Origin: a virus
DNA: 64,000 bases
Virus record (IMG/VR): IMGVR_UViG_3300045988_144476
Strand: one strand, 5' to 3'
Shown: positions 5,444 through 31,061 of the stretch, piece after piece
How positions within the stretch are numbered: the stretch's first letter is position 1
Layout of the letters: each line of letters begins with the position of its first letter
Made by a program: the position numbers and the translations under genes
Notes under the pieces: model-generated
Seen by the model: only the letters and a program-made list of their open reading frames with translations
Told to the model about the DNA's origin: nothing
Database searches by the model: none

Positions 5444-5461
5444 AAAACACCTCCAAACTAA

Positions 5462-6034
5462 TTAGTTGAATAATCCAGTCATAACAGTCATATCTGTATC
5501 AAAGATTTCGTCAAGAATTTTAATTTTCTTTACACTGTCAAGTCGTCCATCACTAACCATTTTTGATGCAAGATGACTAATAGAAGTTTGTGCACCTTCT
5601 GGAAGTGAGAGAATAGTAGCTTTCATACTTGTAGGATCAAGATCAAGAATAACATCTTCAAGTTCCCCTACAGAGTATAGAGAATCATAAAGTTTCTTAA
5701 TCTGAGGATAATGTTCAATAACACCTGAATCTTCGATAACAAAAAGAGGACGCATTACATATCCGTTATTTGAACGAATAGCTGCCATTAAATCCTGGTA
5801 TTCAACTTCTACAACATCACCGGAATCAACCCATGTGTATAGAATATTTGATTTAAGACCTGGCATATAAAGTCCTCCCTGTGTAATTGATTTACATGGG
5901 ATTCCATCATTTGCTCCATAAGTTTTAGTAACTTTCTTTTCTTCTTTAACTTCAACAGTTCCTTTTTCTTCAACAGCAGATTCTGTTTTAACTGGTTCTA
6001 TCTTTGTATTTTTAGTTTTCATAGCAGTAGCCAT
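5462..6034 (-). CDS. hypothetical protein, Lys/Glu-rich N-terminus
   Basis: Track ORF 5462..6055 starts at TTG. The ATG at 6034 has AAAAGGAGAAATACA upstream and is preferred. Confidence 0.55.
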   Translation of the reverse strand: MATAMKTKNTKIEPVKTESAVEEKGTVEVKEEKKVTKTYGANDGIPCKSITQGGLYMPGLKSNILYTWVDSGDVVEVEYQDLMAAIRSNNGYVMRPLFVIEDSGVIEHYPQIKKLYDSLYSVGELEDVILDLDPTSMKATILSLPEGAQTSISHLASKMVSDGRLDSVKKIKILDEIFDTDMTVMTGLFN

Positions 6035-9448: not shown

Positions 9449-9464
9449 AGCTCCTCCTTTCTTT

Positions 9465-9497
9465 GAATATAAAAATACTCCTCAAATAAAAGAGGAG
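9465..9497 (-). terminator. terminator-like hairpin
   Basis: CTCCTC/GAGGAG stem (9478-9483/9492-9497), followed on the - strand by GTATTTTTATATT. Confidence 0.45.
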
Positions 9498-9500
9498 CAG

Positions 9501-9680
9501 CTAAATACATAATGTATTTGTATAGACAAGATCACTTAAATTATTAAAAAGCATCTTACCATCATTTAAAAAAGTCCACTGTGTTCCAGACTGATTTACT
9601 AATTTAAATCCTGTCTTTAGTAATAAATCAGCAGACTCGTCATTATTTGTTATAATAAATTTTGCTTCATTATTTATCAT
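9501..9680 (-). CDS. small hypothetical protein (59 aa, below the ORF-track cutoff)
   Basis: ATG at 9680 with GGTGAG SD; MINNEAKFIITNNDES...; fills the gap between portal and scaffold. Confidence 0.45.
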   Translation of the reverse strand: MINNEAKFIITNNDESADLLLKTGFKLVNQSGTQWTFLNDGKMLFNNLSDLVYTNTLCI

Positions 9681-9688
9681 GTTCTCAC

Positions 9689-11272: not shown

Positions 11273-11292
11273 AAATTCGACACCTCCTTTAT

Positions 11293-13350
11293 TTAATCAT
11301 CAAATATCGATCCAATACGTCCTCTACGAATAGTAAGAGACTGGACTAATGAAATATCAGCTTTAGGCCGTTTTTTATTTGTAATAAATTTTCTACGTTC
11401 ACATTGAAGTGCATAAGATACCATGCAACAAGTGTAGGCACGATCATCGTGTAATTTATTACGTTTTTCTGGACATAATTCAAAAGAATCTTTACCAGAT
11501 TCTCTTTTAATACGAACCATATTGACAAGTTCTTCTTTTAAAGCGTCTATACTAGCAAGTGCTTTTTGTTCTTGCCAGTTTAATTTCTCAGTTCTACTTT
11601 TTACATTTTGTAGATTATTTAAATCATTCTGAACATTATAATCAATATCTTCAGGACTCATTTTTTGTTTTTTATATTTTGCTTCAAGTTCCCTTTTGGC
11701 TTTTTCATATTTTTCTTTATCAATATCAAAAATAGTAAGATAGTCCTTGCCATCATAATCAGCAGTAAAATTAATCTTATCCTGATTCATAAGTTCAATC
11801 ATAGCTTCGTACATCTCAGATTTATATTGAGTAGGAGACATAAGATGTATTTTATTAACAGCATTAGGAAATTTTTTAACATATTCCTCAGAATATTCTT
11901 TATCAATTAAACCACGATGCATTTTGCCATCTTTACCTTTCCAATCTGGCATAAGATAATCAGCAATATTAACACCGCCTCCACCAGATCCAGCATCGAT
12001 ATATATACCTAAAATATTACTATAGGTATCATCACCGCCTTGATTATAATCAAGAATAATTTCTTTCAAATAATCAATCTGATCGGGAGTTTGCATTGGG
12101 CTTTTTCTTTTGTTTCCTATATCAATAAGATTAATACAATTTAATAATCGCATTTTGTATTCAGTGTCACCATTTTGATCTTTATCAACATATATTTCTG
12201 CAACTAAAATTACAGAGTTATCTCTACTACGAGCAGGATCATACGCAATAACAATCTTACGCTCACTTGTATCATTACACAAAATAGGTTTTCGTACTTC
12301 AGAATTTCGTGCAATAACACCTCTTCGGATAATAGCATTAGCTCCAGCATCAGAAGTAAATTCACAATAATACTCTCTACGAGCCTTTTCAGGATTAGAA
12401 CGCATAGCTGCTTCAACAGTTGATTTTGTAAGAAGTGGAGCCATAACTTGACCACGAATAGTAGGTTTAAAAGCTACTTCACAATCTATATGAGCAACAA
12501 AATAATCAGGATCACCCATAAGTTGTCTTTTGCTAAAATCTCTATATAATTTATAAAATTCTGTATCAGTAGAAGACGCAGAAGATATATAAAATAATTG
12601 GTTCGGAATATTTGATGGAATACATCTTAGACGATTTATATCAATAGAATTGCCATCACGGTCTTTACCAGATTTAAAGCTTTTATTGACGATTGCAAAT
12701 GCACCATAAGTTTGAAGCATTTCATCAGAAAGCCATCCACATTCATCAAAAATTACATTACCACGCATTCCCCTTTTTTTATCTATATTACTATTGAGCG
12801 TCTGAGTAAATGCGCCATTATATAAGCTATATGAGAATCCGTTAGAAGAGTGACTAAAACCATCTCCAGCGGCATTTTTTATTTCTATCTCTGCTTTAAA
12901 TATATATCCGGTAGAACCAAGCATTGTATCAATGTTATCATTCGCAATTCTTTCAAGTGTTGTAAAGGTTTGTTCAGCCTGGCTGCCTGAACCAGAAGCA
13001 ATATAGGTCCAATAGTTATTAAACAACATATCTTTAGCCATAACCATAATATCTATTAATGTAGACTTTCCAAATCCTCTCGTACAAACAAGAAGAACAT
13101 TAGGACAATTCCAAGATCTTTGAATTATCCATGCTTGTGAATCCAATAATTCAATATTAAAAAAGTCATTTATAAATCTTACTGGATTACACTGATAATA
13201 TTTCTGAAGATTTGCGATTTTTATAAAACCTTCCAATTTTCTGGAGGACATTGGATAAATACCAGGTTTAACAAAAATTTTATCTCCTTGTTCACAATAA
13301 TTAAGATTCGGCAGATGATTCATTTTCTTCGGATTGATCATCTTCTTCAT
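11293..13350 (-). CDS. terL: terminase large subunit
   Basis: Walker A LVCTRGFGKST and Walker B-like VIFDECGW in the N-terminal ATPase; 685 aa with a C-terminal nuclease-size domain; precedes the portal candidate. Confidence 0.85.
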   Translation of the reverse strand: MKKMINPKKMNHLPNLNYCEQGDKIFVKPGIYPMSSRKLEGFIKIANLQKYYQCNPVRFINDFFNIELLDSQAWIIQRSWNCPNVLLVCTRGFGKSTLIDIMVMAKDMLFNNYWTYIASGSGSQAEQTFTTLERIANDNIDTMLGSTGYIFKAEIEIKNAAGDGFSHSSNGFSYSLYNGAFTQTLNSNIDKKRGMRGNVIFDECGWLSDEMLQTYGAFAIVNKSFKSGKDRDGNSIDINRLRCIPSNIPNQLFYISSASSTDTEFYKLYRDFSKRQLMGDPDYFVAHIDCEVAFKPTIRGQVMAPLLTKSTVEAAMRSNPEKARREYYCEFTSDAGANAIIRRGVIARNSEVRKPILCNDTSERKIVIAYDPARSRDNSVILVAEIYVDKDQNGDTEYKMRLLNCINLIDIGNKRKSPMQTPDQIDYLKEIILDYNQGGDDTYSNILGIYIDAGSGGGGVNIADYLMPDWKGKDGKMHRGLIDKEYSEEYVKKFPNAVNKIHLMSPTQYKSEMYEAMIELMNQDKINFTADYDGKDYLTIFDIDKEKYEKAKRELEAKYKKQKMSPEDIDYNVQNDLNNLQNVKSRTEKLNWQEQKALASIDALKEELVNMVRIKRESGKDSFELCPEKRNKLHDDRAYTCCMVSYALQCERRKFITNKKRPKADISLVQSLTIRRGRIGSIFDD

Positions 13351-14608
13351 CCTCTTCTATAGAACTAAAACATGAATATAATTCATTTAGATCAACCAGA
13401 TCCTCCGGTTTGATTAATCCTTCTTCTTCCATATAATCCTTAAGATCTATATTTTCACGTAGTAAAATACGAGAAATTTCTTTATAATTATCTAAATCAC
13501 TTCGTAAGTTAGTAATCATCTGTCTTTGTTCAGCAACCATATCAGACCATTCAGATTCATCTAATCGCAATGCCTTTAATATAGAAGTATTACTCATATC
13601 CATAACTTGTTGCATACCTCTACAGGTAGCTAAATCAAATCCATTAACCTCTCCTTCACGAAGATTCATATCTTTGATCTTTTTAATTTTTCCGGTCCAA
13701 GTATTTTCGCCTTTTTTAGCATTTTTATTATTTTTCAGAGAAATACAACTTTCAGCAGCGAGATCTTTAATAATACTTGTTAAATCTTTTTTACTTTGTT
13801 GAAGGGATTTAATTGTTGCAGAATTATTTTGCAACTTACGAATATCAGACATGTATGTAGAAATAGCATTATCTATTTTAGATTGTTGTAGAAATGCTCT
13901 TACAATAGAAATAGCAGAAGCGGTTCTCATCATATCATCATTAGCATCTTCACTAGAATCAAGAAGTCCTAGCAATTGAGAATATAAGAAAGGCTGGTCA
14001 GATATAGCTTCTTTTTCGAATGGATCATATCCAAGTAATCTGACTACATCATTTTTATTTTTTACAAAACTACTATAAGTGTCTTGATCTTCACGACCTT
14101 TAATTACGTCTTCAGTAGTCTTCTCATCTTCATATATGATTTTTTCTTTAAACATATCTGAATCAGCATATGTTTCACCAATATATTGCGGCATAGAAAC
14201 ATTTTTAATATAAGATGTCCATGCATTATTCTTAGTTTTTCCAGTAGCGGAATTTTCCGATTCCTGAATACTTGAATCATATAATTTATTATAAAAAGGT
14301 TTATTTAAATAGCGTAAAGCTAACTGAATAGATTCTTTAGTGGGTTCATGTTCTTCTCCATTTGCATCAATTCTTAAAGCAATTTTCTTAGCGCAATCTT
14401 TACAAATTGGAGAACAATGAGATGTTACCAATGGATCGGTATTATCATAGAATCTATCTTTCCTTTTTGGTTTACCGCACATAAAACACCATGCGGTATT
14501 TTCTTTATAGTTTTCAATTTCAGTTTCTAATTCAGCAATTTTTTTTCTCATCTGAGTTGGAGTCATTTTGACAGGCTCAGACGTAGTACTTTTTCTTGTT
14601 GTTGCCAT
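13301..14608 (-). CDS. hypothetical protein with CxxC zinc ribbon (positional candidate for small terminase/DNA-recognition subunit)
   Basis: 435 aa; CFMCGKP...CSPICKDC; acidic C-terminus; overlaps the TerL start by 50 nt. Confidence 0.3.
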   Translation of the reverse strand: MATTRKSTTSEPVKMTPTQMRKKIAELETEIENYKENTAWCFMCGKPKRKDRFYDNTDPLVTSHCSPICKDCAKKIALRIDANGEEHEPTKESIQLALRYLNKPFYNKLYDSSIQESENSATGKTKNNAWTSYIKNVSMPQYIGETYADSDMFKEKIIYEDEKTTEDVIKGREDQDTYSSFVKNKNDVVRLLGYDPFEKEAISDQPFLYSQLLGLLDSSEDANDDMMRTASAISIVRAFLQQSKIDNAISTYMSDIRKLQNNSATIKSLQQSKKDLTSIIKDLAAESCISLKNNKNAKKGENTWTGKIKKIKDMNLREGEVNGFDLATCRGMQQVMDMSNTSILKALRLDESEWSDMVAEQRQMITNLRSDLDNYKEISRILLRENIDLKDYMEEEGLIKPEDLVDLNELYSCFSSIEEDEEDDQSEENESSAES

Positions 14609-14634
14609 AACAACTCCTCCTTGTGTTCGTTAAA

Positions 14635-14709
14635 TAGATGTAGTAGGACTCGAACCTACAAAACTCTGATCCTAAGTCAGATGCGTCTGCCAAATTGCGC
14701 CATACATCC
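14635..14709 (-). tRNA. tRNA with anticodon UAG (Leu codon CUA) but class-I (short variable loop) architecture
   Basis: GGATGTA/TACATCT acceptor, A73. D arm GCGCAATTTGGCAGACGC, anticodon arm TCTGA-CTTAGGA-TCAGA, 5-nt variable loop GTTTT, T arm GTAGG-TTCGAGT-CCTAC. Confidence 0.75.
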
Positions 14710-14714
14710 AAAGA

Positions 14715-14732
14715 AGGGCAGTAAAGACTGCC
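14715..14732 (-). other. 7-bp hairpin between phosphoesterase gene and tRNA
   Basis: GGGCAGT-aaag-ACTGCCC; on the - strand it is followed by TTCTTTGG and then the tRNA 5' end. Confidence 0.4.
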
Positions 14733-14777
14733 CTGTATAGAAGTGTATAATATAAGCAGCAACGCCACTCGTATTAT

Positions 14778-15959
14778 TTAATGTAATTTATATTTATGTT
14801 CATCTACAAGTCCATCTAACTGGTCAAACACAAACATAGAAGCACCTGCGTTTGCAGTTTTATTGATAGACATACTATATGGATTCACTCCAATAATTGA
14901 TCGAACACTAATTACTTCAGAATTTCGTGCAACTTCTTCAGAAAAAGAAGAATGCCAGTGTCCTGTAAATAAATAGTCGATAGGCACTTCATGGATCTTC
15001 ATAATATCTTTCATTGTCTTATTCAGATCTTTTGTTTCAAAATGTCCACCTAAACATGTATAAATAGTTAACTGTGAATATGCTAATCCAGTAGGATTTT
15101 CAACAATTTTTACATTTGGATTATCTTTTAATCTGGCTTTCATCAAAGCTAACATAGATTTACTCATATCTTCATTATCAAAAGCATTTTTAGGTTGTCC
15201 TAATAATCGCAATTGATTATGATTTGATTTTTTAACCATTTGAAAAGTAATAAAAACATGTTTACTTAATTCATTCAGCCATTCAGATAAAAAGTTTGCA
15301 TATAAAATAGAAGAATCAATAACTCCATATTTTAACTGCATAAGCTGAGAATTAGCTCTTAATAAACCATCAAGAGCATCTCCTAAATCCCAAATATGTA
15401 AATGTGTAATTCCGTCTTTATTGATCTGATCAACAACTTTATAATATAATTCCCACATTCTATGTTCAAAAATTTCAGGACTATATTCATTAATGGTATA
15501 TCCATGAAGATCTTTTATATTAAATTCAACTCCGTAATGAGCATCAGAAATAGTAAGAAGATAAGCTTTTGTAGTTGGTTTTAAAATGATCGGTTCAGGC
15601 TTCTCTAATGGTTCAAGACATTTTACAGCTTCGCCAATTTTTTCAGCAATTAATTCATCTCGTGAATACTCACGTAACCATTTATTAAACTCAAGTTTTT
15701 CAGTTTGAAGTTTAATTCGTTCTTTTTTAATTGCAAGTTCTTCCGGTATATTAGAAATAGAAGAGGATGGAGTAATATTCCATCCTGCATCTATATACTC
15801 TAATAATAATTTTGATCCTTTTCGAATTGTATCACGATGTTCAATTTCTCCTAAAGCATCAGATCTAAAATCTGTTACATCTTGCCATTCGATAGATGAA
15901 TCAGTTTGCTTTCGTTTAATCAGATCAAGCTGTTCTTTTAAAAATTGATCTTTATCCAT
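14778..15959 (-). CDS. calcineurin-like metallophosphoesterase
   Basis: Motifs ISDAHYG (DxH), WDLGDALDG (GDxxDG), FTGHWHS (GHxH). Confidence 0.7.
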   Translation of the reverse strand: MDKDQFLKEQLDLIKRKQTDSSIEWQDVTDFRSDALGEIEHRDTIRKGSKLLLEYIDAGWNITPSSSISNIPEELAIKKERIKLQTEKLEFNKWLREYSRDELIAEKIGEAVKCLEPLEKPEPIILKPTTKAYLLTISDAHYGVEFNIKDLHGYTINEYSPEIFEHRMWELYYKVVDQINKDGITHLHIWDLGDALDGLLRANSQLMQLKYGVIDSSILYANFLSEWLNELSKHVFITFQMVKKSNHNQLRLLGQPKNAFDNEDMSKSMLALMKARLKDNPNVKIVENPTGLAYSQLTIYTCLGGHFETKDLNKTMKDIMKIHEVPIDYLFTGHWHSSFSEEVARNSEVISVRSIIGVNPYSMSINKTANAGASMFVFDQLDGLVDEHKYKLH

Positions 15960-15968
15960 AAATTTACC

Positions 15969-16184
15969 TTACATATTATCTGTTGCGGATCCAGAAATGT
16001 CATCAAGATCAATTTTCTCTTCAGTTTTAGTAGTAGTAGAAAGGTCAAAAGGAATATCTCCGTATGCCTTTTCAAAAACTTCAAGAATGTCAATAATTTC
16101 GCCATTCATATCAACAAGTCTTCCATCTACCATATGTAAACTTTTTATTTTTCCATCATATTTTACAGTCTTTTTTAATTCCAT
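15969..16184 (-). CDS. hypothetical protein (71 aa)
   Basis: SD CAAGGAGAAAAATT upstream of the ATG; packed array. Confidence 0.55.
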   Translation of the reverse strand: MELKKTVKYDGKIKSLHMVDGRLVDMNGEIIDILEVFEKAYGDIPFDLSTTTKTEEKIDLDDISGSATDNM

Positions 16185-16205
16185 AATTTTTCTCCTTGTA
16201 TTCCA

Positions 16206-16234
16206 TTGACATATATCAATGTTTGATATATAAT
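16206..16234 (+). promoter_or_regulatory. consensus sigma-A-type promoter TTGACA-N17-TATAAT with embedded perfect 9-bp inverted repeat, antisense to the late operon
   Basis: TTGACA 16206-16211; TATAAT 16229-16234. ATATATCAA-tgt-TTGATATAT palindrome at 16211-16231. Confidence 0.4.
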
Positions 16235-16264
16235 GTTATTTGTGAAAGATTAAATAAAATTCAA

Positions 16265-16870
16265 TTATAATAAAGAATCTAATTCAATATCTTGTCCAAT
16301 AATACCGTCTACAATACCACGTTCTTTTGCCTCTTCAGCAAACATATAATATTCACGGTCTTTAATTTCTTCAAGAAATTCTGCAGACATATTACTATGT
16401 TCAATCATAAAATCAGTCATTCTTTTTTCAAGATTATCATAAAATTTCTGAATATCTTTTCCTTTATTTGACGAACTTACATATCCAGTCTGTCCATCAT
16501 GATACAATACAATAGTATTTGGGAAACAATATCTTTTATGTCCTGCGGCAAGAATATAGGATCCCATAGAAGCACATTTTGCAAATCCAATTGTAATTAC
16601 AGGAGTAGTAGATGTAGAAATTGAACTTAATACTTGTGATCCAGAAATAACATCTCCACCATCTGAATTAATATAAATATAAATTGGTTTTCTACAACCT
16701 TTTGGAAGACCCTTATCTTCTTTGTTCCACTGCATAATCATTAAACAAATATTTTCAATAATATTGTCATCGATATCTTCATTAAGAATAATTTTTCTTT
16801 GATTTAGATGTTCTTTTACAATTGTAGTATAAATTTCATCATCATCTTTTAATGTTAATAATTCCATCAT
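16265..16870 (-). CDS. ClpP-family serine protease
   Basis: GFAKCASMGSYILAAGHKRYCFPNTIVLYHDG aligns with E. coli ClpP GQAASMGAFLLTAG..RFCLPNSRVMIHQP (catalytic Ser and His regions). Confidence 0.75.
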   Translation of the reverse strand: MMELLTLKDDDEIYTTIVKEHLNQRKIILNEDIDDNIIENICLMIMQWNKEDKGLPKGCRKPIYIYINSDGGDVISGSQVLSSISTSTTPVITIGFAKCASMGSYILAAGHKRYCFPNTIVLYHDGQTGYVSSSNKGKDIQKFYDNLEKRMTDFMIEHSNMSAEFLEEIKDREYYMFAEEAKERGIVDGIIGQDIELDSLL

Positions 16871-16890
16871 ATATAATCCCTTTATTCCTT

Positions 16891-18336
16891 TTATAATGTA
16901 ATAACCATATCCTTTACAGAAGCAACAACTTTAAATGTTTTATCTTCATTAGATATAGCTGTTTTTAAATCTTGTTTTAAACTATTTTTAGCAACTTCTG
17001 AACCGTGAACTAAAACTAATTTTTCAGTATTTACTTTAGATCCATATGTGATAAGTTCATTTCTGTTAGCATGACTTGAAAATGTTCCAAGAGATATACA
17101 ATCCGCTTTATTTTCAACTCCATCACCACTAATTTTTATTATCTTATTTTCCTTATAGTTTTTAATTCTATATGAAAGATAGGAATTATCAGCTCCGGTA
17201 TATCCGCTAAAAATAACCATACTGTTTTCATCATTTAAGTATTCATGCAAATAAGATAAAATACGTCCATTTGTACAAAAACCTGAACTGCTTAAAACAA
17301 TTTTAGGTCTATGATCTTTAACAATAGCTAAAGAGTCTTCTTTTTCACGAATAAAATGAACTTTATCCCAACTAGATATTTTTCCCCATAACTCCAAATC
17401 ATTATCTGGTAGAAGAGTAGAATATAGATCACAAATATCACATGATAAGATAGAATCAACAATAATGTCATATTGAAAATTCTGATCATGATAAATACTA
17501 TATAGATTTGTCAATATTTCTTGCGTTCTACTAAAACTAAAGCATGGCATAATAACGGATCCACCACGTTCAGTTACTGTGTCAATAGCAGCTTTCAAAT
17601 GATCCAGGTCAAATTTACGTGTTTTCTTATTAATTCGTCCTGGTTCACCATAAGTAGACTCCATAATAGTAATTTTATTAAAATCTGTTGGAATTTCAGT
17701 ATTAGGAACATAATGATTCTTTGTATTCAAAGAACCAATATCAGAAGTGTATAAAATAGATTTTGGGATTCCGTTTTGATCCCGAAGTGTAAGTTGGAGC
17801 TGCCTAGCACCAACGCAATGACTATTTTCATACCATTTAAACGAAACGACATCATCCAAAACATATTGCGTATGAATTTCATCATATTCAACAATATATT
17901 TCAAGGTATCAGTAACATCTGTTTCATCATAGATAGGAGAATAGTTTCTTTTATATTTAAATGATAAAGCATTTGCTTCACTGAGTAAAATAAAAGCACA
18001 ATTATAAAGCAGCGGTTTCATAAGTTGTGCAGTAGCATGTGAAGCAATAATTTTTCCTGTAAATCCTTCTTTTACCAGTCTTGGAAGTAATCCAATATGA
18101 TCAACATGAGTATGTCCAATAAAAACATAATCAATTTCAGAAGGTTTAAATTGAAATTTTGCTGAATTTATATTATATGACTCAAGATAATTATTATTTT
18201 GATATAAACCGCATTCTAATAATATTTTTTTGCCGTTGTATTTAATATAAATACAGCTGCCGGTAACATCATTGGCATTTTGACCTATTAAATAAATGCC
18301 TTCATCTTTTTTCTTTTTAGCTATGTCAAACACCAA
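16891..18336 (-). CDS. metallo-beta-lactamase fold beta-CASP nuclease (RNase J/CPSF-like)
   Basis: HxHxDH motif GHTHVDHIG; IMESTYGE (beta-CASP motif A); FSSHANRNEL (motif B); LVHGSE (motif C). Non-ATG start (TTG/GTG). Confidence 0.8.
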   Translation of the reverse strand: MVFDIAKKKKDEGIYLIGQNANDVTGSCIYIKYNGKKILLECGLYQNNNYLESYNINSAKFQFKPSEIDYVFIGHTHVDHIGLLPRLVKEGFTGKIIASHATAQLMKPLLYNCAFILLSEANALSFKYKRNYSPIYDETDVTDTLKYIVEYDEIHTQYVLDDVVSFKWYENSHCVGARQLQLTLRDQNGIPKSILYTSDIGSLNTKNHYVPNTEIPTDFNKITIMESTYGEPGRINKKTRKFDLDHLKAAIDTVTERGGSVIMPCFSFSRTQEILTNLYSIYHDQNFQYDIIVDSILSCDICDLYSTLLPDNDLELWGKISSWDKVHFIREKEDSLAIVKDHRPKIVLSSSGFCTNGRILSYLHEYLNDENSMVIFSGYTGADNSYLSYRIKNYKENKIIKISGDGVENKADCISLGTFSSHANRNELITYGSKVNTEKLVLVHGSEVAKNSLKQDLKTAISNEDKTFKVVASVKDMVITL

Positions 18337-18748: not shown

Positions 18749-18830
18749 TGGGAGAGGTAGGACTCGAACCTACGATGTTTCTTTGTGGCTGATTTACAGT
18801 CAGCTGCCTTCGCCGCTAGACTACTCTCCC
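18749..18830 (-). tRNA. tRNA-Tyr (GTA)
   Basis: GGGAGAG/CTCTCCC acceptor, A73. Anticodon arm GCTGA-CTGTAAA-TCAGC, long variable arm, T arm GTAGG-TTCGAGT-CCTAC. No encoded CCA. Confidence 0.9.
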
Positions 18831-19147
18831 TTGTGTTAAGTGAACAGCTATTCTTATTAAATATATAACCATAAATGGAGGCCATATATTTTATTGGAAA
18901 CTTAACTTTCCCATATGATTTATGGTTAAATCACAAAAACTTGACTGCGTTTCGTCCTAAGTCAAACTCCCGCCAGATTTTCACGCTACTAGATATCTGG
19001 AACTTATCTTTTAATTCATCAAGAATACAGATTTGCGCCTGTCATTCTAAGATATAGTCTGTGTACTTTAGACTGCCATTTACTTCACTTCCTAAATGGT
19101 CAAAACGTAATCTGGGGCTAGAGGAGCTACCTCCGCATTTCAGATAA

Positions 19148-19219
19148 CACGCCCCCAAAGATTCGAACTCTGACTAATCGGGTTGGAGCCGATTGTACTG
19201 CCAATTATACGAAAGGCGT
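19148..19219 (-). tRNA. tRNA-Trp (CCA)
   Basis: Acceptor ACGCCTT/GGGGCGT, G73. Anticodon arm ATCGG-CTCCAAC-CCGAT, T loop TTCGAAT. Confidence 0.85.
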
Positions 19220-19227
19220 AAATAAAA

Positions 19228-19300
19228 GGTGACTAACGGGATTCGAACCCGTATAAGGTGGATCCACAATCCACTGCATTACCAAATCTGCCATAGTCAC
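19228..19300 (-). tRNA. tRNA-His (GTG), C73, no genome-encoded G-1
   Basis: GTGACTA/TAGTCAC acceptor with U8. Anticodon arm GTGGA-TTGTGGA-TCCAC, T arm ACGGG-TTCGAAT-CCCGT, discriminator C (19228). Position -1 is U (plus-strand a at 19301). Confidence 0.9.
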
Positions 19301-19302
19301 AA

Positions 19303-19384
19303 CGCTGCACACACGATTCGAACGTGCAAATCCTTTCGGACCAACAGTTTTCAAGACTGCTTCTTCACCACCCAGACATGCAGC
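19303..19384 (-). tRNA. tRNA-Ser (TGA)
   Basis: Anticodon arm GCAGT-CTTGAAA-ACTGT, long variable arm TGGTCCGAAAGGATT, T arm GCACG-TTCGAAT-CGTGT, G73. Its 3' end is 2 nt from the tRNA-His 5' end. Confidence 0.8.
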
Positions 19385-19684
19385 ATAAAAAATATCCGTC
19401 TTTCCGGATTGTCAGACTACCCAGTAGTCATTTGCTAATTAATAATAGAAGCTGCGTCCTGCAGTTTCTTTTTTTTGTTTTTATTAATAATTCCTATATG
19501 GGATAACGCAAAGCAGAATACTCGAAATTCAATCCAATAAAGGATCGCATGACTTAGCAGGTCAGCTCCGTGCCTCACGGATTTACTTTGCAAGAGGAGA
19601 GTGGGAGACAGAAGTCTCCCTCAAAAAAAAATGAAAACAATAGTAACATAAACAACATCAAATTTGAGAGAAAAATTCTCTCAA

Positions 19685-19770
19685 TACTACCTGTGGGACT
19701 TGAACCCACACTTCGTATTTCAGAAACAGGATTTTAAGTCCTGTGCGCCTGCCAATTACGCCAAGGTAGC
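19685..19770 (-). tRNA. tRNA-Leu (TAA)
   Basis: GCTACCT/AGGTAGT acceptor, A73. Anticodon arm CAGGA-CTTAAAA-TCCTG, long variable arm, T arm GTGGG-TTCAAGT-CCCAC. Confidence 0.9.
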
Positions 19771-19782
19771 ATTTATGGGATA

Positions 19783-19854
19783 AGCACTATATGAGAATTG
19801 AACTCATATCATCTGATTGGAAGTCAGATATCATTGCCATTAGACCAATAGTGC
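19783..19854 (-). tRNA. tRNA-Gly (TCC)
   Basis: GCACTAT/ATAGTGC acceptor, U73. Anticodon arm TCTGA-CTTCCAA-TCAGA, T arm ATGAG-TTCAATT-CTCAT. Confidence 0.9.
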
Positions 19855-19858
19855 AAAA

Positions 19859-19932
19859 TGCCCGGTGCGAGACTCGAACTCGCATTATTGCCTTGAAAGG
19901 GCAATGTCACTAGCCTGTTAGACCAACCGGAC
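19859..19932 (-). tRNA. tRNA-Glu (TTC)
   Basis: GTCCGGT/ACCGGGC acceptor. Glu-type D arm GTCTAACAGGCTAGTGAC, anticodon arm TTGCC-CTTTCAA-GGCAA, T arm GCGAG-TTCGAGT-CTCGC. Confidence 0.9.
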
Positions 19933-20090
19933 TTATTTTATCTAGGAAGCGGGAAGCGGTCTTCTGCCGAACTGTTTATCTTATTACCTACTAAATTATA
20001 AAGAGCCATGGTTTTATAAAATTTTGGATCTCAGTTTAAAGAACTAAGATAATATTCTTTACGATTAAATCGTACTTAATACTTCCCAAA

Positions 20091-20161
20091 TAGCGGAGAT
20101 TAGATTCGAACTAATGTCTCTAGGGTATGAACCTAGCAAGGATCCACTCCTCTACTCCGCA
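20091..20161 (-). tRNA. tRNA with anticodon CAT (Met, initiator-like, or Ile2), U1/U72 mismatch
   Basis: Acceptor TGCGGAG/CTCCGCT with a 1:72 U-U mismatch; U8; D stem GAGG/CCTT (A11:U24). Anticodon arm CTAGG-TTCATAC-CCTAG, T arm ATTAG-TTCGAAT-CTAAT, A73. Confidence 0.8.
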
Positions 20162-20345
20162 TTAATCGTTTATATGGTAGAACTATATCTGTATCGTCTT
20201 ACAATACATAGCATGTTCACTTATTGCCTACTAAGGATTCCATACTTTATCCCGATCAAAGTATAAAATGGACTCGGTTAATAATTCACATCTCATTTAA
20301 TATACTTTGTGTATGTTTATCCACACCAAACTTTCAGGCACCAAA

Positions 20346-20419
20346 CTGGAATGATGCGATTTGAACGCACAACATCTTGGTCCCAAACCAAGCGGACTGC
20401 CAAATTGTCCTACATTCCA
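20346..20419 (-). tRNA. tRNA-Pro (TGG)
   Basis: TGGAATG/CATTCCA acceptor. D arm GGAC-AATTTGGCA-GTCC, anticodon arm CTTGG-TTTGGGA-CCAAG, T arm GTGCG-TTCAAAT-CGCAT. Confidence 0.85.
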
Positions 20420-21185
20420 TTAATAATAGGATGAGATTATTGACCTATTTAAATCAGCTTTGCTTACCGTTGGAAGTAAGTAATCACACGAACGATTAAT
20501 TCGTAGCTGATAGCGACACCAGTTTCAGTGGCTACTGGCAAACTCTTACTACATAGTATTATAAATTTCCTTTCAGCACATTCTTCCTTGCGAGATTCAG
20601 AGATTGCAGTCTCTTAGAGTTGCACCTAATTGTACTTTTTCATATTTCACCTTGCGAGTTTAATATGTGTCCATATTACAGAACAATAAGTCGCTTTTCT
20701 CTATGTAGTCGCATACACTTTTGCTTAATATAAGAATTTAACATTATTTTATGTTTTCTAACCAATTAAAAATATGTATGCTATTATTTATAGACTACGA
20801 GGTATACGTTTGAACATCTGTATCTTTTGAATACAGCCCATTCATCGCAGCCTTGCTTGTCTTGCTATCGACTCACTTTAGGCTATTCTAACTATCTTTC
20901 GATTTAAGTCAGAAATGTCCAATTAAATACAGCACTTGCTCTTGCGGAACTTGCACCATAAAACAACCTTACTGTCCACCCATTTCTGAGTTTATTTATA
21001 GCACCTTTCCCATGATGCCCGACCAACCATTGTCCTCAGCGGATGCCCCAAGACTTTAGGTTGGAACGTTAGTAAGTATTGGCTTTCTATCACCCCTCTT
21101 TAGAAGGAGGCACTTTCGTGCTTTATACGTGTCACCACGCTTATTTAACGACTTGAAGCCAGCCGATCTAATATTTATATATTTT
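20420..21185. ncRNA. ORF-free, hairpin-rich segment inside the tRNA array (candidate structured RNA, class unknown)
   Basis: About 0.77 kb with no credible ORF and locally GC-enriched. GNRA-type hairpins on the - strand include GCAC-GAAA-GTGC (21110-21121) and ATC-GAAA-GAT. CTCGCAAGG occurs twice (20586-20594, 20650-20658). Confidence 0.3.
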
Positions 21186-21218
21186 ATAAAAAAAACATAA
21201 AGCTTATTAGATAAAGCT
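21186..21218 (-). terminator. terminator after tRNA-Asn
   Basis: AGCTT-tatctaat-AAGCT hairpin, followed on the - strand by TTATGTTTTTTTTAT. Confidence 0.55.
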
Positions 21219-21221
21219 AAG

Positions 21222-21294
21222 CTGACCCAGTAGGAATTGAACCTACGACACGCTGGTTAACAGCCAGCTGCTCTACCTATTGAGCTATGGGCCA
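21222..21294 (-). tRNA. tRNA-Asn (GTT)
   Basis: TGGCCCA/TGGGTCA acceptor. D arm GCTC-AATAGGTA-GAGC, anticodon arm GCTGG-CTGTTAA-CCAGC, T arm GTAGG-TTCAATT-CCTAC, G73. Confidence 0.9.
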
Positions 21295-21330: not shown

Positions 21331-21603
21331 TTACGCATTAACTGCTTCTTTAATAGCTTTACCAAATTTGCATTTTACTGCATTCTTAGCATCAACCATT
21401 ACAGTTTCACCAGTTCTTGGATTACGAGCTGTACGAGCATCTTTATGTACAGAATACAGAGTTACTCCGTCCATCAGTTTAACTTCCTCACTAGCAAGTG
21501 TAGCAAATGTTACGTCCTGAACAGCTTCAATAACTGTCTTTACATCTTTCTGTGTGAATCCTGTTTTACCTGCAACTTCTTTAATCATTTCAACTTTGTT
21601 CAT
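21331..21603 (-). CDS. HU/IHF-family DNA-binding protein
   Basis: 90 aa; MNKVEMIKEVA..TQKDV...ARTARNPRTGE..V..KF.GK is the classic HU fold signature (RNPxTGE arm); SD AAAAGGAGAAA. Confidence 0.9.
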   Translation of the reverse strand: MNKVEMIKEVAGKTGFTQKDVKTVIEAVQDVTFATLASEEVKLMDGVTLYSVHKDARTARNPRTGETVMVDAKNAVKCKFGKAIKEAVNA

Positions 21604-21697: not shown

Positions 21698-22036
21698 TTA
21701 GTTAAAAATATTATTGGCGATTTCTGCGCCTTTTTCATTAAGTATTTCACATGAATTGATATAAGATGTAATTACATTACCTTCTTTATCTTCACGCTTG
21801 ATTTCAATCCCTTTGCATTTTGGATTTTTGCATGCCATTACATTTCCATGAATAAATGTCATTGGCTGACCACATGCTCTACAAATGTGTTTAGATACAA
21901 ATTTTTCCTGTTGTTTTGCAAGTTTTTCTTCATCACTTGTTTTTTTAACAATTGGTTTCATTCCCCAGGCTTCTCTAAGATCAGCGAGAGAAGTATAATG
22001 TTCTTTTGTCCCGGAGGATAATCTATAATTTTTCAT
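21698..22036 (-). CDS. zinc-ribbon protein, function unknown
   Basis: CRACGQP...CKNPKC four-Cys ribbon; 112 aa. Confidence 0.55.
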   Translation of the reverse strand: MKNYRLSSGTKEHYTSLADLREAWGMKPIVKKTSDEEKLAKQQEKFVSKHICRACGQPMTFIHGNVMACKNPKCKGIEIKREDKEGNVITSYINSCEILNEKGAEIANNIFN

Positions 22037-22309
22037 TTTGTAAATCTCCTTGTTTTCAAATAATTATTTGTACGTCCGGATGTATTAAGCCCATCCGGAG
22101 GCATTAAAAAACTATCAATTCGAATCCCATATTTAAATACGCATCGGTAATAGCGCAGAAGGTTTTGCCTTTTTTCAAACAGCTGTCTGACCACATGTAT
22201 CCAAATTCTACGTATAATATGGACCTGAAGGATCAACGAAGCAAAAAGTTATTCCCCTCATATAGTGGACGAATTTGACATTGCGAAAAGTACTGGTTTT
22301 ATATACGTT

Positions 22310-25174
22310 TTAAACCAACTTTTTTTTTGAATTCGTGTAATTTTTGCGGAAATTTTGAAGGAATGCATCTTTATCCATATTGTAAAGAAGATTAAGCAAG
22401 TTACGTGTATACCGAATGTATTCTTTAGCTTTACCTCGATTACTGGTATTTAAAGCAATTTCAATAAGTCTGCTCATTGTTTTTGGATTTTTTATTTTCA
22501 TTTTACGTAAATCTTTAAGAATTTCATCAAATCTTTGAGTATATGCTATAATATCGTCATCTGACATATTATCTTTACTCAATAACTCTAATTCTTTAGC
22601 ATATCCTATAATTTTATCCATTTGTCTTCGATTAGCATCGCCAGAAACTTTTATAATAAAATCTTTCGTAGGAGTAGAATTTTTAGAAGAGATAGGTTTA
22701 ATCTCATTTATTACAATCTGCAGAGCATTCATAGGACATATATAATAGGAAGAAATTCTGTTATTGAGCTTGTCAACCTGTTGCATAACTTCTTCTTTTT
22801 CAAGTTCTTTACCGTTCTTTGTATATGAAATTTTCCTTGTATATCTCATAAACTCTGGAAAATCAATTTTCTGTTTCTTGGTATTGCCATCTTCATCAAC
22901 ATATTCCCTATACCGATTCATGCATTCCATTCTTTTGATTCTCTTTATTTCATCAAGAGCGTCAACTTCATATTCTCTTTTGCAACCATCAATTATAACT
23001 TGGGCAAGAACAGAAAGAATAACGAAGTTATCGTATAATTCCCTTGTAGGTTCAGTCCAATAATATGTCATAGCAAGCTGTGCTAAATTACTAGATTCAC
23101 CAATACCAATTCTAGATTTTGCAAATTTATTATCCATACGAGCGTACTCTTTGAGTGTATTCTTATATGTAAGGCCGCTTTCTTTAAGCTTATTTACAAT
23201 AGTAGGATATTTTTGATATGCAATTTTTGCACTTTGTACCATTACATCATTATTAGTAACAAAAAAGAAATCTGAATCAAAATCACATCCATTAGCACGA
23301 TCCTGGATATCAGTATGGATACAATTTACAAACATGATATTGTTACTAATATTAAAATATCGCTTAAATCTATCATCATAGTGATTATGTAAGTAGCAAA
23401 TATTATTAGGACTATTATGAGGGTTTCTGATACCACACAAATATTCACCATCATCAAATCTTTTGGTATATACCTGAATTACGCCATCTTCATGTTTAAA
23501 AGTTGGATCGTCATCCGGATTTTCTCCTACAGCTTTCATTAAAAGAGCATAAGGATTTCCAAAAATAGTTAAGTTATCTCCATTTATAGTAATTTTACCG
23601 GTACGAAGTTTATTTACATATTGATTTATAATTTTTCTTTTTTCAAATCTAAACCATGTACTTTCTGCAAATTCATTGTTCCAATTATACAAATCTGCCA
23701 GCATTTCATAGTGATTCACTACATTTGCATTTTTTCTCAGATAATCAACATAAATACCATTGTCAACTTTCATAGATTCAACATAATCAACACTTTTTTT
23801 AGCTAATTTACGAATTTCATTTACATAGCAGCATGGAAGAATATCATCTTTATAAGAAGGAAGAGTATTAACCATTTGATAGCTCATCTGTTGCACATTA
23901 CCTAATTTACTTGGATGATCGGTTTTAACTATCCCCCAGTAGGATCCATCAGCATTAACTCTATCACACCAATATTTATAGGCATCTGCAGGTGTTTTAC
24001 CCATCAAATTCATGAATTTCTTCCATTTAATAGCATTATCTGTTGTAATCATCTTAATATCTTTCAATTTATGTAAAATACCAAACATATCCTTTACTTC
24101 ATATGTTTCGTAATCATACCCATGTTCAGCACACCAATCTTTTAAAAATAACTGTATTTCACATCGAATAGCACATGCTTTAAAGAAATGTTCTCTCAAA
24201 AGTGCCATTCCATTCACCCATGATGGAAGAATAGAAGACTCTGCAAGCATCTCACCATCAAATAAAGTATTTTTTACCTCAGTTTCCTCATCATGAACGA
24301 CACATTTTTTCTTAATTACCGGAATTGTTTTATATCTTCTGGTATATTTCGGAGTAACGCCATCTTTAAGAAATTTCTTTTCCTTAATAGCCTTTTGTCT
24401 AGCAGCTTCAGTAGCTTCTTCATCAAGAACACGTTCATAATCTGTATATTCTTCAGCTGAAACAATCTTAGCCATCGTTTTAAAAAAACTGTCATGATCC
24501 TTAAGAATTAAAATATCTTCAACAGGACAATGAAATTTCCCTACAATAGTAGAAGTAGTAAGCGGAGCATAAGCTGACATTTCAACAATTTTCGCATCGT
24601 CAATAGGCATTTTGTCTCCAAGTCCCATAGTGAGCCAATCATATGCCTTTTTGTATAATTTACTATTAATAAACATTACCTGGCCAATTTTAGCCTTTGA
24701 AGAATTTCGGTAAAGCATTTTATAATTAATTTTCTGTACCTTTTCTTCATTTTTCTTAGAGTATTTGGTCCGGTATGTAACATCTATACCATTTTCATAG
24801 AATAATTCTCTAATTTCATCTTTGGACATTTTTAGATAATTATCCTTATTAGCCTGTACATTTTCAAATATTTGTTTAATTCTTTCTTTTGATTCCTTTG
24901 TAAGAGAAGCATCTTCCTCATATCCTTTAAATTGTTTCCTTAAATGAGTAATTTCTTCTTCATAGCTGCGACTACCAAAATTAAAATCAAGACAGATAAT
25001 ATCTCTTGTACTTGTATCATTCCATATATTTAAACCATGTTCTTTTATCCAGTCTGAGAATAAACTGTTACTGAACATAGCATCAGTAAAATCAAATCTT
25101 TCACGAACACCCTGATTATTTCCAAAGAGAGTGCCGGCTTTTATATTTTTTATTTTTAATCCAAATTCTGACAA
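22310..25174 (-). CDS. YonO/cellular-RdRP-like single-subunit two-barrel RNA polymerase (candidate)
   Basis: 954 aa. GIRNPHNSPNNI, then 48 aa later ANGCDFDSDFFFV. This parallels the ..NPxLHPGD.. and ..GGDxDGDxYFV catalytic signature of RdRP/YonO-type polymerases and NADFDGD of beta-prime. TTG start after AAGGAGGTG. Confidence 0.65.
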   Translation of the reverse strand: MSEFGLKIKNIKAGTLFGNNQGVRERFDFTDAMFSNSLFSDWIKEHGLNIWNDTSTRDIICLDFNFGSRSYEEEITHLRKQFKGYEEDASLTKESKERIKQIFENVQANKDNYLKMSKDEIRELFYENGIDVTYRTKYSKKNEEKVQKINYKMLYRNSSKAKIGQVMFINSKLYKKAYDWLTMGLGDKMPIDDAKIVEMSAYAPLTTSTIVGKFHCPVEDILILKDHDSFFKTMAKIVSAEEYTDYERVLDEEATEAARQKAIKEKKFLKDGVTPKYTRRYKTIPVIKKKCVVHDEETEVKNTLFDGEMLAESSILPSWVNGMALLREHFFKACAIRCEIQLFLKDWCAEHGYDYETYEVKDMFGILHKLKDIKMITTDNAIKWKKFMNLMGKTPADAYKYWCDRVNADGSYWGIVKTDHPSKLGNVQQMSYQMVNTLPSYKDDILPCCYVNEIRKLAKKSVDYVESMKVDNGIYVDYLRKNANVVNHYEMLADLYNWNNEFAESTWFRFEKRKIINQYVNKLRTGKITINGDNLTIFGNPYALLMKAVGENPDDDPTFKHEDGVIQVYTKRFDDGEYLCGIRNPHNSPNNICYLHNHYDDRFKRYFNISNNIMFVNCIHTDIQDRANGCDFDSDFFFVTNNDVMVQSAKIAYQKYPTIVNKLKESGLTYKNTLKEYARMDNKFAKSRIGIGESSNLAQLAMTYYWTEPTRELYDNFVILSVLAQVIIDGCKREYEVDALDEIKRIKRMECMNRYREYVDEDGNTKKQKIDFPEFMRYTRKISYTKNGKELEKEEVMQQVDKLNNRISSYYICPMNALQIVINEIKPISSKNSTPTKDFIIKVSGDANRRQMDKIIGYAKELELLSKDNMSDDDIIAYTQRFDEILKDLRKMKIKNPKTMSRLIEIALNTSNRGKAKEYIRYTRNLLNLLYNMDKDAFLQNFRKNYTNSKKKLV

Positions 25175-25186
25175 ACAAACACCTCC

Positions 25187-26920
25187 TTAAAATGGAATTA
25201 GCGTATTATTATATTCTCGTGTAGACATAACTATATTATTGTCAGAATTAGTTGATGAAATGCTTCTATTAATTGATGAAACACTGTGATGGAAACGTGA
25301 ACGTGTATATCTGCCATAATCTTCCATAAATTGTTTTAAAACCTTTTTATCTTTATTTTTAATTTTATCAGATTCGCATTTCTTTAACTGTTTCTGCAAA
25401 TTACTTAATTGTCTATTACTACTAAGTGTACCTAATGGTCCACCAATTTTCATTTTTATATCTTTCTTTTTACGTTCAATCTCTTTTTTAAGAAATTCAA
25501 TTTTCTTATCCAAATCTTCATTTATCATTTTTTCAAAAGCTTTATTATATCTATCGATGTAATATTGCTGAAGATCTTTGGAGAATGTCTTCATCAGATC
25601 ATTCCATGTCATTTTCTCAATTTCTTCTATATTAATAGATTTAGCAAAATCAATAATATCTTTCACGAACTCAAGAGTAAGTAAAAATGTCTCATATTTT
25701 AAAGTACTTTTGAACATTCTAAATTCAATGGTGTCTTTGTGCTGTAAGTTTAACGCAGCTTTTTTACCGGTATTATCATACTTTGCAAGCAGATTAAGAA
25801 CCGTATCTTCTTTACAACGATCACCCACAAATTGACTATAATCCGTATTTCTTCTTCCAATAACACAAATATTGTCGTTAAATTTCTCAATAATATACAA
25901 TATTTTAGAAATTACCAGATCCTGCTGCATTTTGGTTTTACCTAAATAATCTCTATTTGCATGAATATGTAAGCCTGCAGTATTACAATCATGTCCTTTA
26001 TAACCCATTTCATCAAGATATTTAAACATTTCTTTGTAGTTCATCTTGTTTTTATGATATTCTAAGCTACAAGGCATAGTATCAAGTTCAATTTGAACCG
26101 TACCATCATGAGTACTATATATAAGATCTTCTTTATCAGACTCAGATCCATTCATTATTTGAATACATCTCTTTACAACTGATTGTTTATTATTAGAATC
26201 TACTTCTGGTTTATTTCCACCAACTTCTATTTCTGCTCCAAGTAGAAGAGTAGTACGTTTATTTTCGTGGTCCATAAAATGTTTAATATATTCTGGCGTA
26301 TAATTATATTCATGAATATAGTATTTTTTATTACAATTATTTATCATAGCAGTTCGTAACATTGATGCACTGTAATCTATAAAAAAATCATTAGCATAAG
26401 AAGATGAAGCACTAACTGATTCTATTAGACGATCTAAGCCCCTATCATTTACAACATTCCCATTAGTATCTACTTTTCTATATCCGATTAATTCACATCT
26501 ATTACATTCTGCATTAAAATATACATTATCATTAGATAGACTATTTAATCTGTGTTGTGATACAAGTTTTCTAGATACTTCATACGTATCGGTATTTAGT
26601 CTGCTACAGAACCAATTATAAAATAAATTAAAATTATAAATAATTCGACAATCAAATCTATGCCAGCCAGAATCATCGCAATATGAAACAGTTGCGGTAT
26701 CTATATCTGTATAATTCGATAGTGCTATTCTTACTTTTTCAGCTAATTCACGCATATTAAATTCAATTGCATAATCATTACATTCAAAAATAATACAATC
26801 TCCAAAACTATTATTTGTATAAATACATCTTATATTTGTAACAAAATAATTATCTACAACAAATGGATCCTGAAGACTAATAGTATGTCCGTCAATCTCT
26901 ATATCAGGTAATAATTTCAT
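25187..26920 (-). CDS. glutamine-synthetase-like amidoligase domain protein with coiled-coil C-terminus
   Basis: LLLGAEIEVGG, TAGLHIHANRD and TIEFRMFKSTL match the ExE / HxH / ExR pattern of the Amidoligase_2 family. The C-terminal 120 aa is Lys-rich coiled coil. Confidence 0.55.
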   Translation of the reverse strand: MKLLPDIEIDGHTISLQDPFVVDNYFVTNIRCIYTNNSFGDCIIFECNDYAIEFNMRELAEKVRIALSNYTDIDTATVSYCDDSGWHRFDCRIIYNFNLFYNWFCSRLNTDTYEVSRKLVSQHRLNSLSNDNVYFNAECNRCELIGYRKVDTNGNVVNDRGLDRLIESVSASSSYANDFFIDYSASMLRTAMINNCNKKYYIHEYNYTPEYIKHFMDHENKRTTLLLGAEIEVGGNKPEVDSNNKQSVVKRCIQIMNGSESDKEDLIYSTHDGTVQIELDTMPCSLEYHKNKMNYKEMFKYLDEMGYKGHDCNTAGLHIHANRDYLGKTKMQQDLVISKILYIIEKFNDNICVIGRRNTDYSQFVGDRCKEDTVLNLLAKYDNTGKKAALNLQHKDTIEFRMFKSTLKYETFLLTLEFVKDIIDFAKSINIEEIEKMTWNDLMKTFSKDLQQYYIDRYNKAFEKMINEDLDKKIEFLKKEIERKKKDIKMKIGGPLGTLSSNRQLSNLQKQLKKCESDKIKNKDKKVLKQFMEDYGRYTRSRFHHSVSSINRSISSTNSDNNIVMSTREYNNTLIPF

Positions 26921-30887: not shown

Positions 30888-31061
30888 TTTATAAAGATTT
30901 TTTAAATCAGCTTTTATGTAGTTGGTATTTCTACTACATAATTGTCAAATGTTAAATCTGGAGATGTAAGTAGTGATTTAATCAAATAACCGTTGCTGAT
31001 TGTTTGTAGTATATCACTGAAAAATGAGGATGTCAATAGGCTTTTTAAATAATATGCTAGG

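Follow-up and report, generated by a model that had tools for sequence, protein, structure and literature searches.

What kind of polymerase is encoded at 22310..25174 of the viral DNA recorded as IMGVR_UViG_3300045988_144476, and which genes would it transcribe? The stretch that was analysed, 64,000 nucleotides long and called the window below, carries at this position, on its minus strand, an open reading frame (ORF) of 954 amino acids. A sequence-only reading, made without database searches, had likened its product to the RNA-dependent RNA polymerases (RdRPs) of eukaryotic cells and to YonO, the RNA polymerase of the Bacillus subtilis prophage SPbeta, and had suggested that it transcribes late genes. 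We consider it probable that the gene encodes a catalytically competent YonO-family single-chain two-barrel RNA polymerase, which, by analogy with YonO, most likely serves the late genes of the phage. The ORF, taken from the ORF listing, is genuine. It begins with a TTG start codon (25174-25172), is preceded at a distance of 7 nt by the strong Shine-Dalgarno sequence AGGAGG (25182..25187, minus strand, located by reading the sequence), and has a nearest database relative, P0001, that is 99% identical and likewise 954 residues long. The stop codon of the preceding gene, which ends 13 nt before the TTG, overlaps the Shine-Dalgarno sequence at 25187-25189.

Profile searches, set in advance as a check that could refute the polymerase identity, retrieved no unrelated family and assigned the protein to phrog_8308, the PHROG family of YonO. 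This profile, annotated as "unknown function", matches residues 77-948 of the window protein at 2.1e-89 (profile positions 76-814 of 847). YonO itself, translated from the yonO gene of SPbeta AF020713 (L003:11357-13876, minus strand), matches the profile over its full length with an expectation value (E) of 0, and a protein of Enterocloster phage PMBT24 labelled "RNA-dependent RNA polymerase" gives 2e-95 against it. Since membership of the PHROG might reflect similarity to proteins in it besides YonO, the relationship was tested by hhalign with a YonO-free alignment. An exhaustive homologue search of 1.84 billion representatives at E<=1e-3 found 1161 clusters at 50% identity, and 94 full-length homologues, sharing 27-59% identity with the query, were assembled, with YonO excluded, into alignment A1. 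The alignment of A1 to YonO had a probability of 99.2% and an E of 3.3e-19 over 504 columns, and spanned residues 147-781 of the window protein and 137-660 of YonO.

Searches of other collections did not reach this family. Pfam and NCBIfam contain no match to the window protein and none to YonO, a megablast search of 10 kb around the polymerase gene against GenBank phages gave no match, and searches of PDB chains with the single sequence and with the profile returned chance matches only, without reaching QDE-1 or RDR2. Both sets of barrel motifs are located in one ORF, which has no Pfam RNA polymerase subunit domains. Pfam also provided no match to T7-like single-subunit polymerases or to the eukaryotic-type RdRP family, the likeness to the latter being one of fold and active site only. 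No curated family covers the window-type YonO subfamily, the members of which are labelled "hypothetical" or "RNA-dependent RNA polymerase"; the second label is probably misleading.

The active site of two-barrel RNA polymerases contains eight invariant residues, which in QDE-1 are D709, R738, K743, R962, P964, D1007, D1009, and D1011, and which have the Pol II counterparts D837, K979, and K987 of Rpb2 and R446, P448, D479, D481, and D483 of Rpb1 (Ruprich-Robert and Thuriaux, PMC2919709). The window protein has all eight in the same order, as D306, R327, K332, R583, P585, D631, D633, and D635, and they are invariant in 94/94 of the A1 homologues, as is G307. The YonO residues aligned to them are D249, R266, K271, R492, P494, D535, D537, and D539. 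The segment of the first, beta-like barrel (24179..24259, minus strand, translation DGEMLAESSILPSWVNGMALLREHFFK) contains D306-G307 and R327-x4-K332, in which D306, R327, and K332 correspond to D709, R738, and K743 of QDE-1. The segment of the second, beta-prime-like barrel (23270..23428, minus strand, translation RNPHNSPNN...GCDFDSD) contains R583-N-P585 and the metal-binding triad D631-F-D633-S-D635. The R-x4-K and R-x-P spacings are the same as in QDE-1, and the offset from the arginine to the first aspartate is 48 residues in the window protein (R583-D631), 45 in QDE-1 (R962-D1007), and 43 in YonO (R492-D535). Judged by order, spacing, and the alignment to YonO, the eight residues correspond to those of the two-barrel superfamily.

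The two motifs from which the sequence-only reading set out, GIRNPHNSPNNI (residues 581-592) and ANGCDFDSDFFFV (residues 627-639), are both present, and their conservation is beyond chance, with R583, P585, D631, D633, and D635 invariant in all 94 homologues. The spacing of 48 residues that had been given for them is correct as the offset from R583 to D631, but the gap between the two strings is 34 residues. The motif had furthermore been described as differing at its middle aspartate. All three aspartates are in fact kept, and the departure from DxDGD is a change from glycine to serine at position 634. This position is occupied by serine in 81, glycine in 5, and threonine in 4 of the 94 homologues, so that serine is the consensus of the subfamily; the signature of the two-barrel superfamily is DxDxD (Iyer et al., PMC7824862). 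Substitution of the aspartate triad in YonO abolishes catalysis (PMC5467207).

The structure of the window protein, predicted by AlphaFold2 with alignment A1, has a mean predicted local distance difference test score of 93.7 and a predicted template modelling (TM) score of 0.90. A predicted structure devoid of double-psi beta-barrels (DPBBs) had also been set in advance as a refuting outcome and did not occur: the matches of the model indicate the fold of the superfamily, in which two DPBBs form the catalytic cleft. The best matches found by Foldseek in the PDB are maize RDR2 (7w82, 4.6e-13), QDE-1 (2j7n and related entries, about 1e-10), and Arabidopsis RDR2 (about 1e-10); the RDR2 and QDE-1 matches as a whole have E from 1e-13 to 1e-9, a probability of 1.0, TM scores of 0.40-0.48, and ~1000 aligned columns. 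The phage polymerase P74 gp62 (8f5m_B) was matched at 1.9e-5 with a probability of 1.0 in a partial alignment (TMq 0.25), and Rpb1 of Pol II weakly, at about 0.2. In BFVD, the model matched gut-phage proteins labelled RdRP at 4.5e-50 (TM 0.70) and 3.9e-22, the P23-45 protein A7XX94 at 1.9e-6, and, locally, an RlpA-like DPBB domain with a probability of 0.98. Crass-like proteins were matched there with E of 0.02-0.1, and a fragment of phi14:2 gp66 with E of 0.43. The Foldseek matches in the PDB and BFVD include no primase, helicase, or T7-like fold, and no solved structure of YonO turned up among them. The fold comparison therewith retrieved the two-barrel polymerases RDR2, QDE-1, and P74 gp62, and the profile, active-site, and predicted-fold evidence agree on a two-barrel polymerase of the YonO type. 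The window protein displays all those features of the YonO-like family that could be examined computationally.

The function of the window polymerase can be approached through that of YonO, which synthesises RNA processively and in a DNA-dependent manner (Forrest et al. 2017, PMC5467207). Without YonO, 37 late genes of SPbeta are silent; they form one operon, the transcription of which starts in the yonN-yonK gap, ahead of both yonK and a non-coding RNA that lacks annotation (PMC5467207). The published primer-extension primers map to this gap at about 10330-10574 of the SPbeta sequence (L003). The primer for the published start, 2225998 in the genome of strain 168, has no match in the species-representative genomes, and the SPbeta start is therefore bounded only by two primers, at about 10357-10574 of L003.

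The genomic setting of the window polymerase resembles this arrangement. The window divides at ~31 kb into a plus-strand half of early or replication type, with a ParB-like protein, a DnaD-like initiator, a reverse transcriptase, and many small ORFs, and a minus-strand half. The minus-strand genes are, in order, a Bro-N anti-repressor, a Thg1-like tRNA-His guanylyltransferase, a 577-residue protein of unknown function, the polymerase, a 112-residue zinc-ribbon-like ORF, and HU, after which come ten tRNAs, a beta-CASP nuclease, a ClpP-type protease, YonJ-like and YonG-like proteins, the large terminase, and the portal. This annotation bears out the earlier placement of the gene between early-type genes and a block of tRNAs and late genes. 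When all ORFs of the window were compared with SPbeta by tblastn, the HU-like DNA-binding protein (21331..21603, minus strand; phrog_379 at 2.5e-24, Pfam Bac_DNA_binding) matched yonN at 3e-12, and its position relative to the polymerase gene is the same as that of yonN relative to yonO. In addition, the genes at 14778-15959 and 13301-14608 matched yonJ (1.5e-40) and yonG (2e-10), and the large terminase and the gene at 7877-9448 matched yonF and yonD (6e-8 each). The homologues of yonN, yonJ, yonG, yonF, and yonD are collinear on one strand, and the polymerase corresponds to yonO by profile.

The co-oriented late module, which is the predicted target of the polymerase, spans 7877..18336 on the minus strand and was delimited by PHROG, the Pfam families YonJ_CC and YonG_N, and tblastn. 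Its genes, which encode the beta-CASP nuclease, a ClpP-like prohead protease, the YonJ-like and YonG-like proteins, the YonF-like large terminase, the portal, and the YonD-like protein, are collinear, co-oriented, and densely packed. In the majority of 80 viral relatives, the polymerase gene is followed by late markers on its own strand. Because of the homology, the conserved catalytic residues, and the collinear layout, the window polymerase most likely transcribes late genes, as YonO would by analogy suggest. The collinearity with the SPbeta late region thus supports the late transcriptase proposed from the sequence, while the role itself is one that we infer by analogy. Insensitivity to rifampicin can reasonably be inferred as well, since the protein lacks those regions of the beta subunit from which the drug pocket is built.

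The following sequence of events is proposed. The host polymerase would express the gene within a leftward early or middle operon composed of the anti-repressor, the Thg1-like protein, the 577-residue protein, and the polymerase. A promoter-like site of the sigma-70 type, TTGACA-17-TATACT with a TG, is located at the divergent junction (31008..31036, minus strand; 11/12 consensus positions matched) and is a candidate host-polymerase promoter for this operon. The scan for sigma-70 promoters as a whole was at background, with 103 found and 97 expected, and was therefore used only to flag this one strong site. The enzyme, alone or with an unknown factor, would then initiate at a phage-specific site just 3' of its own gene and transcribe the co-oriented late unit, which would consist of the zinc-ribbon ORF, HU, the tRNA array with its embedded large RNA described below, and the genes for head and tail proteins and for packaging. 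The synthesis of RNA on the DNA template would employ two Mg2+ ions, held by D631, D633, and D635 together with D306, and R327, K332, and R583 would contact the nucleoside triphosphate and the RNA 3' end.

The gap directly 3' of the polymerase gene, which is at least 240 nt long, contains a conserved non-coding element (22076..22271, minus strand) that was identified by iterative nhmmer. Block 1 of the element is at about 22248-22277, and its core at 22118-22156 is formed by the hairpin GCGC-TATTACCGAT-GCGT, followed by TAAATATGGG and the palindrome ATTCGAAT. The element is single-copy: nhmmer gave a single match for each of 43 sources and detected no further copy in the window or SPbeta. The hairpin covaries: bases are paired in 96.6% of cells, one position shows five pair types, and the score was reached by 0/500 shuffles. 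The palindrome of 8-10 nt after TAAATATGGG varies in sequence among the relatives and remains palindromic. One subclade has, beyond the core, a GTATACTAGGGG block and another hairpin that covaries. The element is, as a hypothesis, a candidate for the promoter or a 5' leader of the late unit.

ARAGORN and Rfam identified an array of 10 tRNA genes on one strand (18749..21294, minus strand), placed between HU and the structural genes. Within it is a GOLLD-type large ornate RNA (20420..21220, minus strand) that takes up the 800 nt separating tRNA-Asn from tRNA-Pro. Its core (20428-20853) matches RF02032 along the entire model (1-416/416) at 114.5 bits and E 1.4e-30. The Rfam gathering score is 150, and a default Rfam scan therefore misses this RNA. 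In 18 related loci, the 800-nt segment is conserved over nearly its whole length at the equivalent position. Among 83 related loci, GOLLD-like RNAs were found in 19/83 and ROOL-like RNAs in 16/83; both together occur in 0/83, and neither was detected in 48/83. The GOLLD/ROOL slot starts 0.24-1.7 kb past the polymerase stop codon, always on the same strand and usually with tRNAs behind it. Ornate RNAs of relatives are located at 13012-13609 of L038, 12303-12793 of L169, and 8424-9021 of L171. MT835469, whose polymerase is 24% identical to that of the window, has a GOLLD RNA at 172.6 bits, above the threshold, and MT837385 (L171), with a polymerase 43% identical, has a ROOL RNA at 271.5 bits. 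Near-identical phages swap GOLLD for ROOL with an identical upstream gap.

In the literature, GOLLD and ROOL are described as phage-borne RNAs of unknown function found near tRNA islands, and GOLLD increases in lysis. The literature searched yielded no co-mention of YonO, or a YonO-type polymerase, with GOLLD or ROOL. We offer the tentative proposal, which we regard as more doubtful than not, that YonO-type polymerases are the dedicated transcriptases of islands of GOLLD/ROOL and tRNAs, that these islands are the 5' part of the late unit, that the element composed of the hairpin, TAAATATGGG, and the palindrome is the first recognisable promoter or leader of the YonO type, and that GOLLD and ROOL are interchangeable cassettes of one polymerase-linked slot. 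On this proposal, transcription would begin at the GGG of TAAATATGGG, at about 22126-22128. SPbeta differs from the window in having its unannotated non-coding RNA in the place of the tRNAs and GOLLD. The SPbeta gap was considered as a possible GOLLD or ROOL locus and was rejected, as Rfam gave no match to either. The yonN-yonK gap does contain, at 9410-9475 and 10720-10829 of L003 on the minus strand, a DUF3800-VIII motif at 47.5 bits, above the threshold, and a weak skipping-rope match at 29.6 bits.

Several observations concern individual members of this region. A group I intron (RF00028, 77 bits) is located at 5276-5525 of MT837385, where the match to its 43%-identical polymerase breaks off, which suggests that the polymerase gene of this phage is interrupted by an intron. 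The Thg1-like tRNA-His guanylyltransferase that shares an operon with the window polymerase is encoded at 27661-28494 (minus strand), and the phage has its own tRNA-His within the ten-tRNA array, at 19228-19300 (minus strand). An eleventh tRNA, tRNA-Leu(UAG), stands by itself in the interval that separates the YonJ-like from the YonG-like late gene (14634-14710, minus strand). The nuclease directly 3' of the array of tRNAs and GOLLD (16891-18336, minus strand) contains metallo-beta-lactamase and beta-CASP domains like those of RNase J and CPSF. Relatives keep the nuclease in this position, and the RNA of the array could be its substrate for processing.

How firmly do these data point to a YonO-like late polymerase? 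The considerations that weigh against it mainly concern the distance to YonO. A pairwise BLASTP comparison of the window protein with YonO is not significant (E 0.19), which makes the window protein a member of a distant subfamily, and the aligned identity is ~16%; this is a large distance for the transfer of function. YonO has a C-terminal CxxC...CxxC tail that is absent from the window protein, behind which a separate zinc-ribbon-like ORF follows. The fold does not reveal which template is preferred, because the nearest structures are RNA-dependent and QDE-1 takes both RNA and DNA. The site proposed for initiation is the conserved element, a candidate, rather than a mapped start, and the SPbeta start-site interval holds only weak look-alikes of the element, such as TTTATGAGGGTG at 10444-10433 of L003.

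Other explanations have to account for the same evidence. That the protein is an active two-barrel polymerase with another task, for instance transcribing only GOLLD/ROOL and the tRNAs or another class of genes, or making replication primers, strikes us as unlikely, although the non-coding RNAs do come immediately 3' of the gene, relatives have GOLLD or ROOL with tRNAs in that slot, and the transcript made by YonO in SPbeta likewise begins with an unannotated non-coding RNA. The unit transcribed by YonO spans 37 structural and lysis genes, the late genes of the window have the collinear, co-oriented, and dense arrangement described above, and 48/83 relatives carry the polymerase gene with no detectable GOLLD or ROOL. 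An enzyme that copies RNA, for example to make double-stranded RNA or to amplify phage RNA, is considerably less probable still. The best structural matches are indeed the cellular RdRPs RDR2 and QDE-1, and the PMBT24 protein and metagenomic phage records are labelled accordingly, but these labels probably stem from the same similarity of fold rather than from experiment. YonO, which alone in the family has been characterised, works on DNA templates and produces transcripts of phage late genes, the window protein has no Pfam RdRP domain, and a double-stranded DNA phage with a YonO-like late layout has no evident use for the copying of RNA. Least credible of all is a degenerate, non-catalytic relative kept for a structural or regulatory role: the glycine-to-serine change in the DxDGD motif and the very low identity to YonO could be taken as signs of decay, but the eight catalytic residues are invariant in 94 diverse homologues, Ser634 is the norm of the subfamily and fits DxDxD, and the family is retained in 1161 representative clusters at 50% identity.

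The reading of the window protein as a YonO-type late polymerase also defines its place among known enzymes. It shares with YonO the family phrog_8308, profile homology over ~500 residues, and the same eight active-site residues. Both are single chains of ~100 kDa encoded by temperate phages, and in both phages the polymerase gene precedes an HU-like gene and collinear homologues of yonJ, yonG, yonF, and yonD. The window protein differs from YonO in its length of 954 rather than 839 residues, with extra insertions in the N-terminal half, in having DFDSD in place of DNDGD, and in a host among gut Clostridia rather than Bacillus. With QDE-1 and RDR2 it has in common the location of both barrels in one chain, the same eight residues, the R-x4-K and R-x-P motifs, and a distance of 45-48 residues from arginine to aspartate, whereas there is no match at the level of sequence, the biology of those enzymes is RNA silencing, and the template preferred by the window protein is, by analogy with YonO, probably DNA.

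Among phage enzymes, gp64 of P23-45 and gp62 of P74-26 from Thermus phages are likewise single-chain two-barrel non-virion polymerases and have a significant fold match to the window protein, but they are much smaller, about 600 residues, and align only in part. The P23-45/P74-26 non-virion polymerase transcribes early, not late, genes. The crAss-like phi14:2 gp66 is a gut-phage protein with a DxDxD two-barrel core; it is a giant protein that is packaged in the virion and injected for the transcription of early genes. Its fold matches to the window protein are marginal (E 0.02-0.4), and the 954-residue window protein is encoded in an early or middle operon, outside the structural block. The identity as a crAss-type virion polymerase was rejected on account of this marginal match and gene position. 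A T7-type enzyme was rejected as well, neither Pfam nor the Foldseek matches having shown one.

The genes flanking the polymerase were considered as possible partners. The 112-residue ORF directly 3' of the polymerase gene (21698..22036, minus strand) contains a zinc-ribbon-like CxxC...CxxxxC pattern (CRACG...CKNPKC), has no match in PHROG or NCBIfam, and is kept in close relatives only. As YonO has the cysteine-rich C-terminal tail that the window protein lacks, this ORF may be a module split off from a tail of the YonO type. The 577-residue upstream protein and the 112-residue ORF were rejected as obligate subunits, since tblastn did not detect them beside the polymerase in relatives that are 50-55% identical. 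On the early strand, a reverse-transcriptase-like protein of 426 residues is encoded at 52959-54239 (plus strand; phrog_1423, 8.6e-20).

The contigs and genomes that bear relatives of the polymerase show that the window belongs to a ~164-kb SPbeta-like temperate phage lineage of gut Clostridia. The exact polymerase protein is encoded on a metagenomic contig of 163.6 kb, and a 77%-identical copy is located inside a 499-kb contig of Ruminococcus sp. AM36-2AA. Among cultivable strains, Eisenbergiella tayi DSM 26961 and E. porci also carry a relative. Relatives were found on 357 IMG/VR contigs and, in a search of species-representative genome contigs with a 12-sequence alignment, in 137 genomes, mostly of Lachnospiraceae/Eubacteriales and including one complete 7.3-Mb chromosome.

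To our knowledge, YonO is the sole minimal single-chain relative of cellular RNA polymerases transcribing DNA that has been studied. YonO-like proteins of Firmicutes phages and genomes have been on record since 2003-2010 (PMC2919709). Because they were noted then, and YonO was characterised in 2017, the window polymerase is no new kind of enzyme but a divergent and very abundant addition to the known family. Its subfamily is very common in the prophages of gut Clostridia, as is evident from the 1161 clusters, 357 contigs, and 137 genomes, and this depth gives the structural model its very high confidence and opens a comparative route to the discovery of promoters. The slot occupied by GOLLD or ROOL provides a testable tie between recognition by YonO-type polymerases and the timing and maker of the ornate RNAs. 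The linkage to GOLLD and ROOL and the candidate cis-element are the parts of this work that could open new ground.

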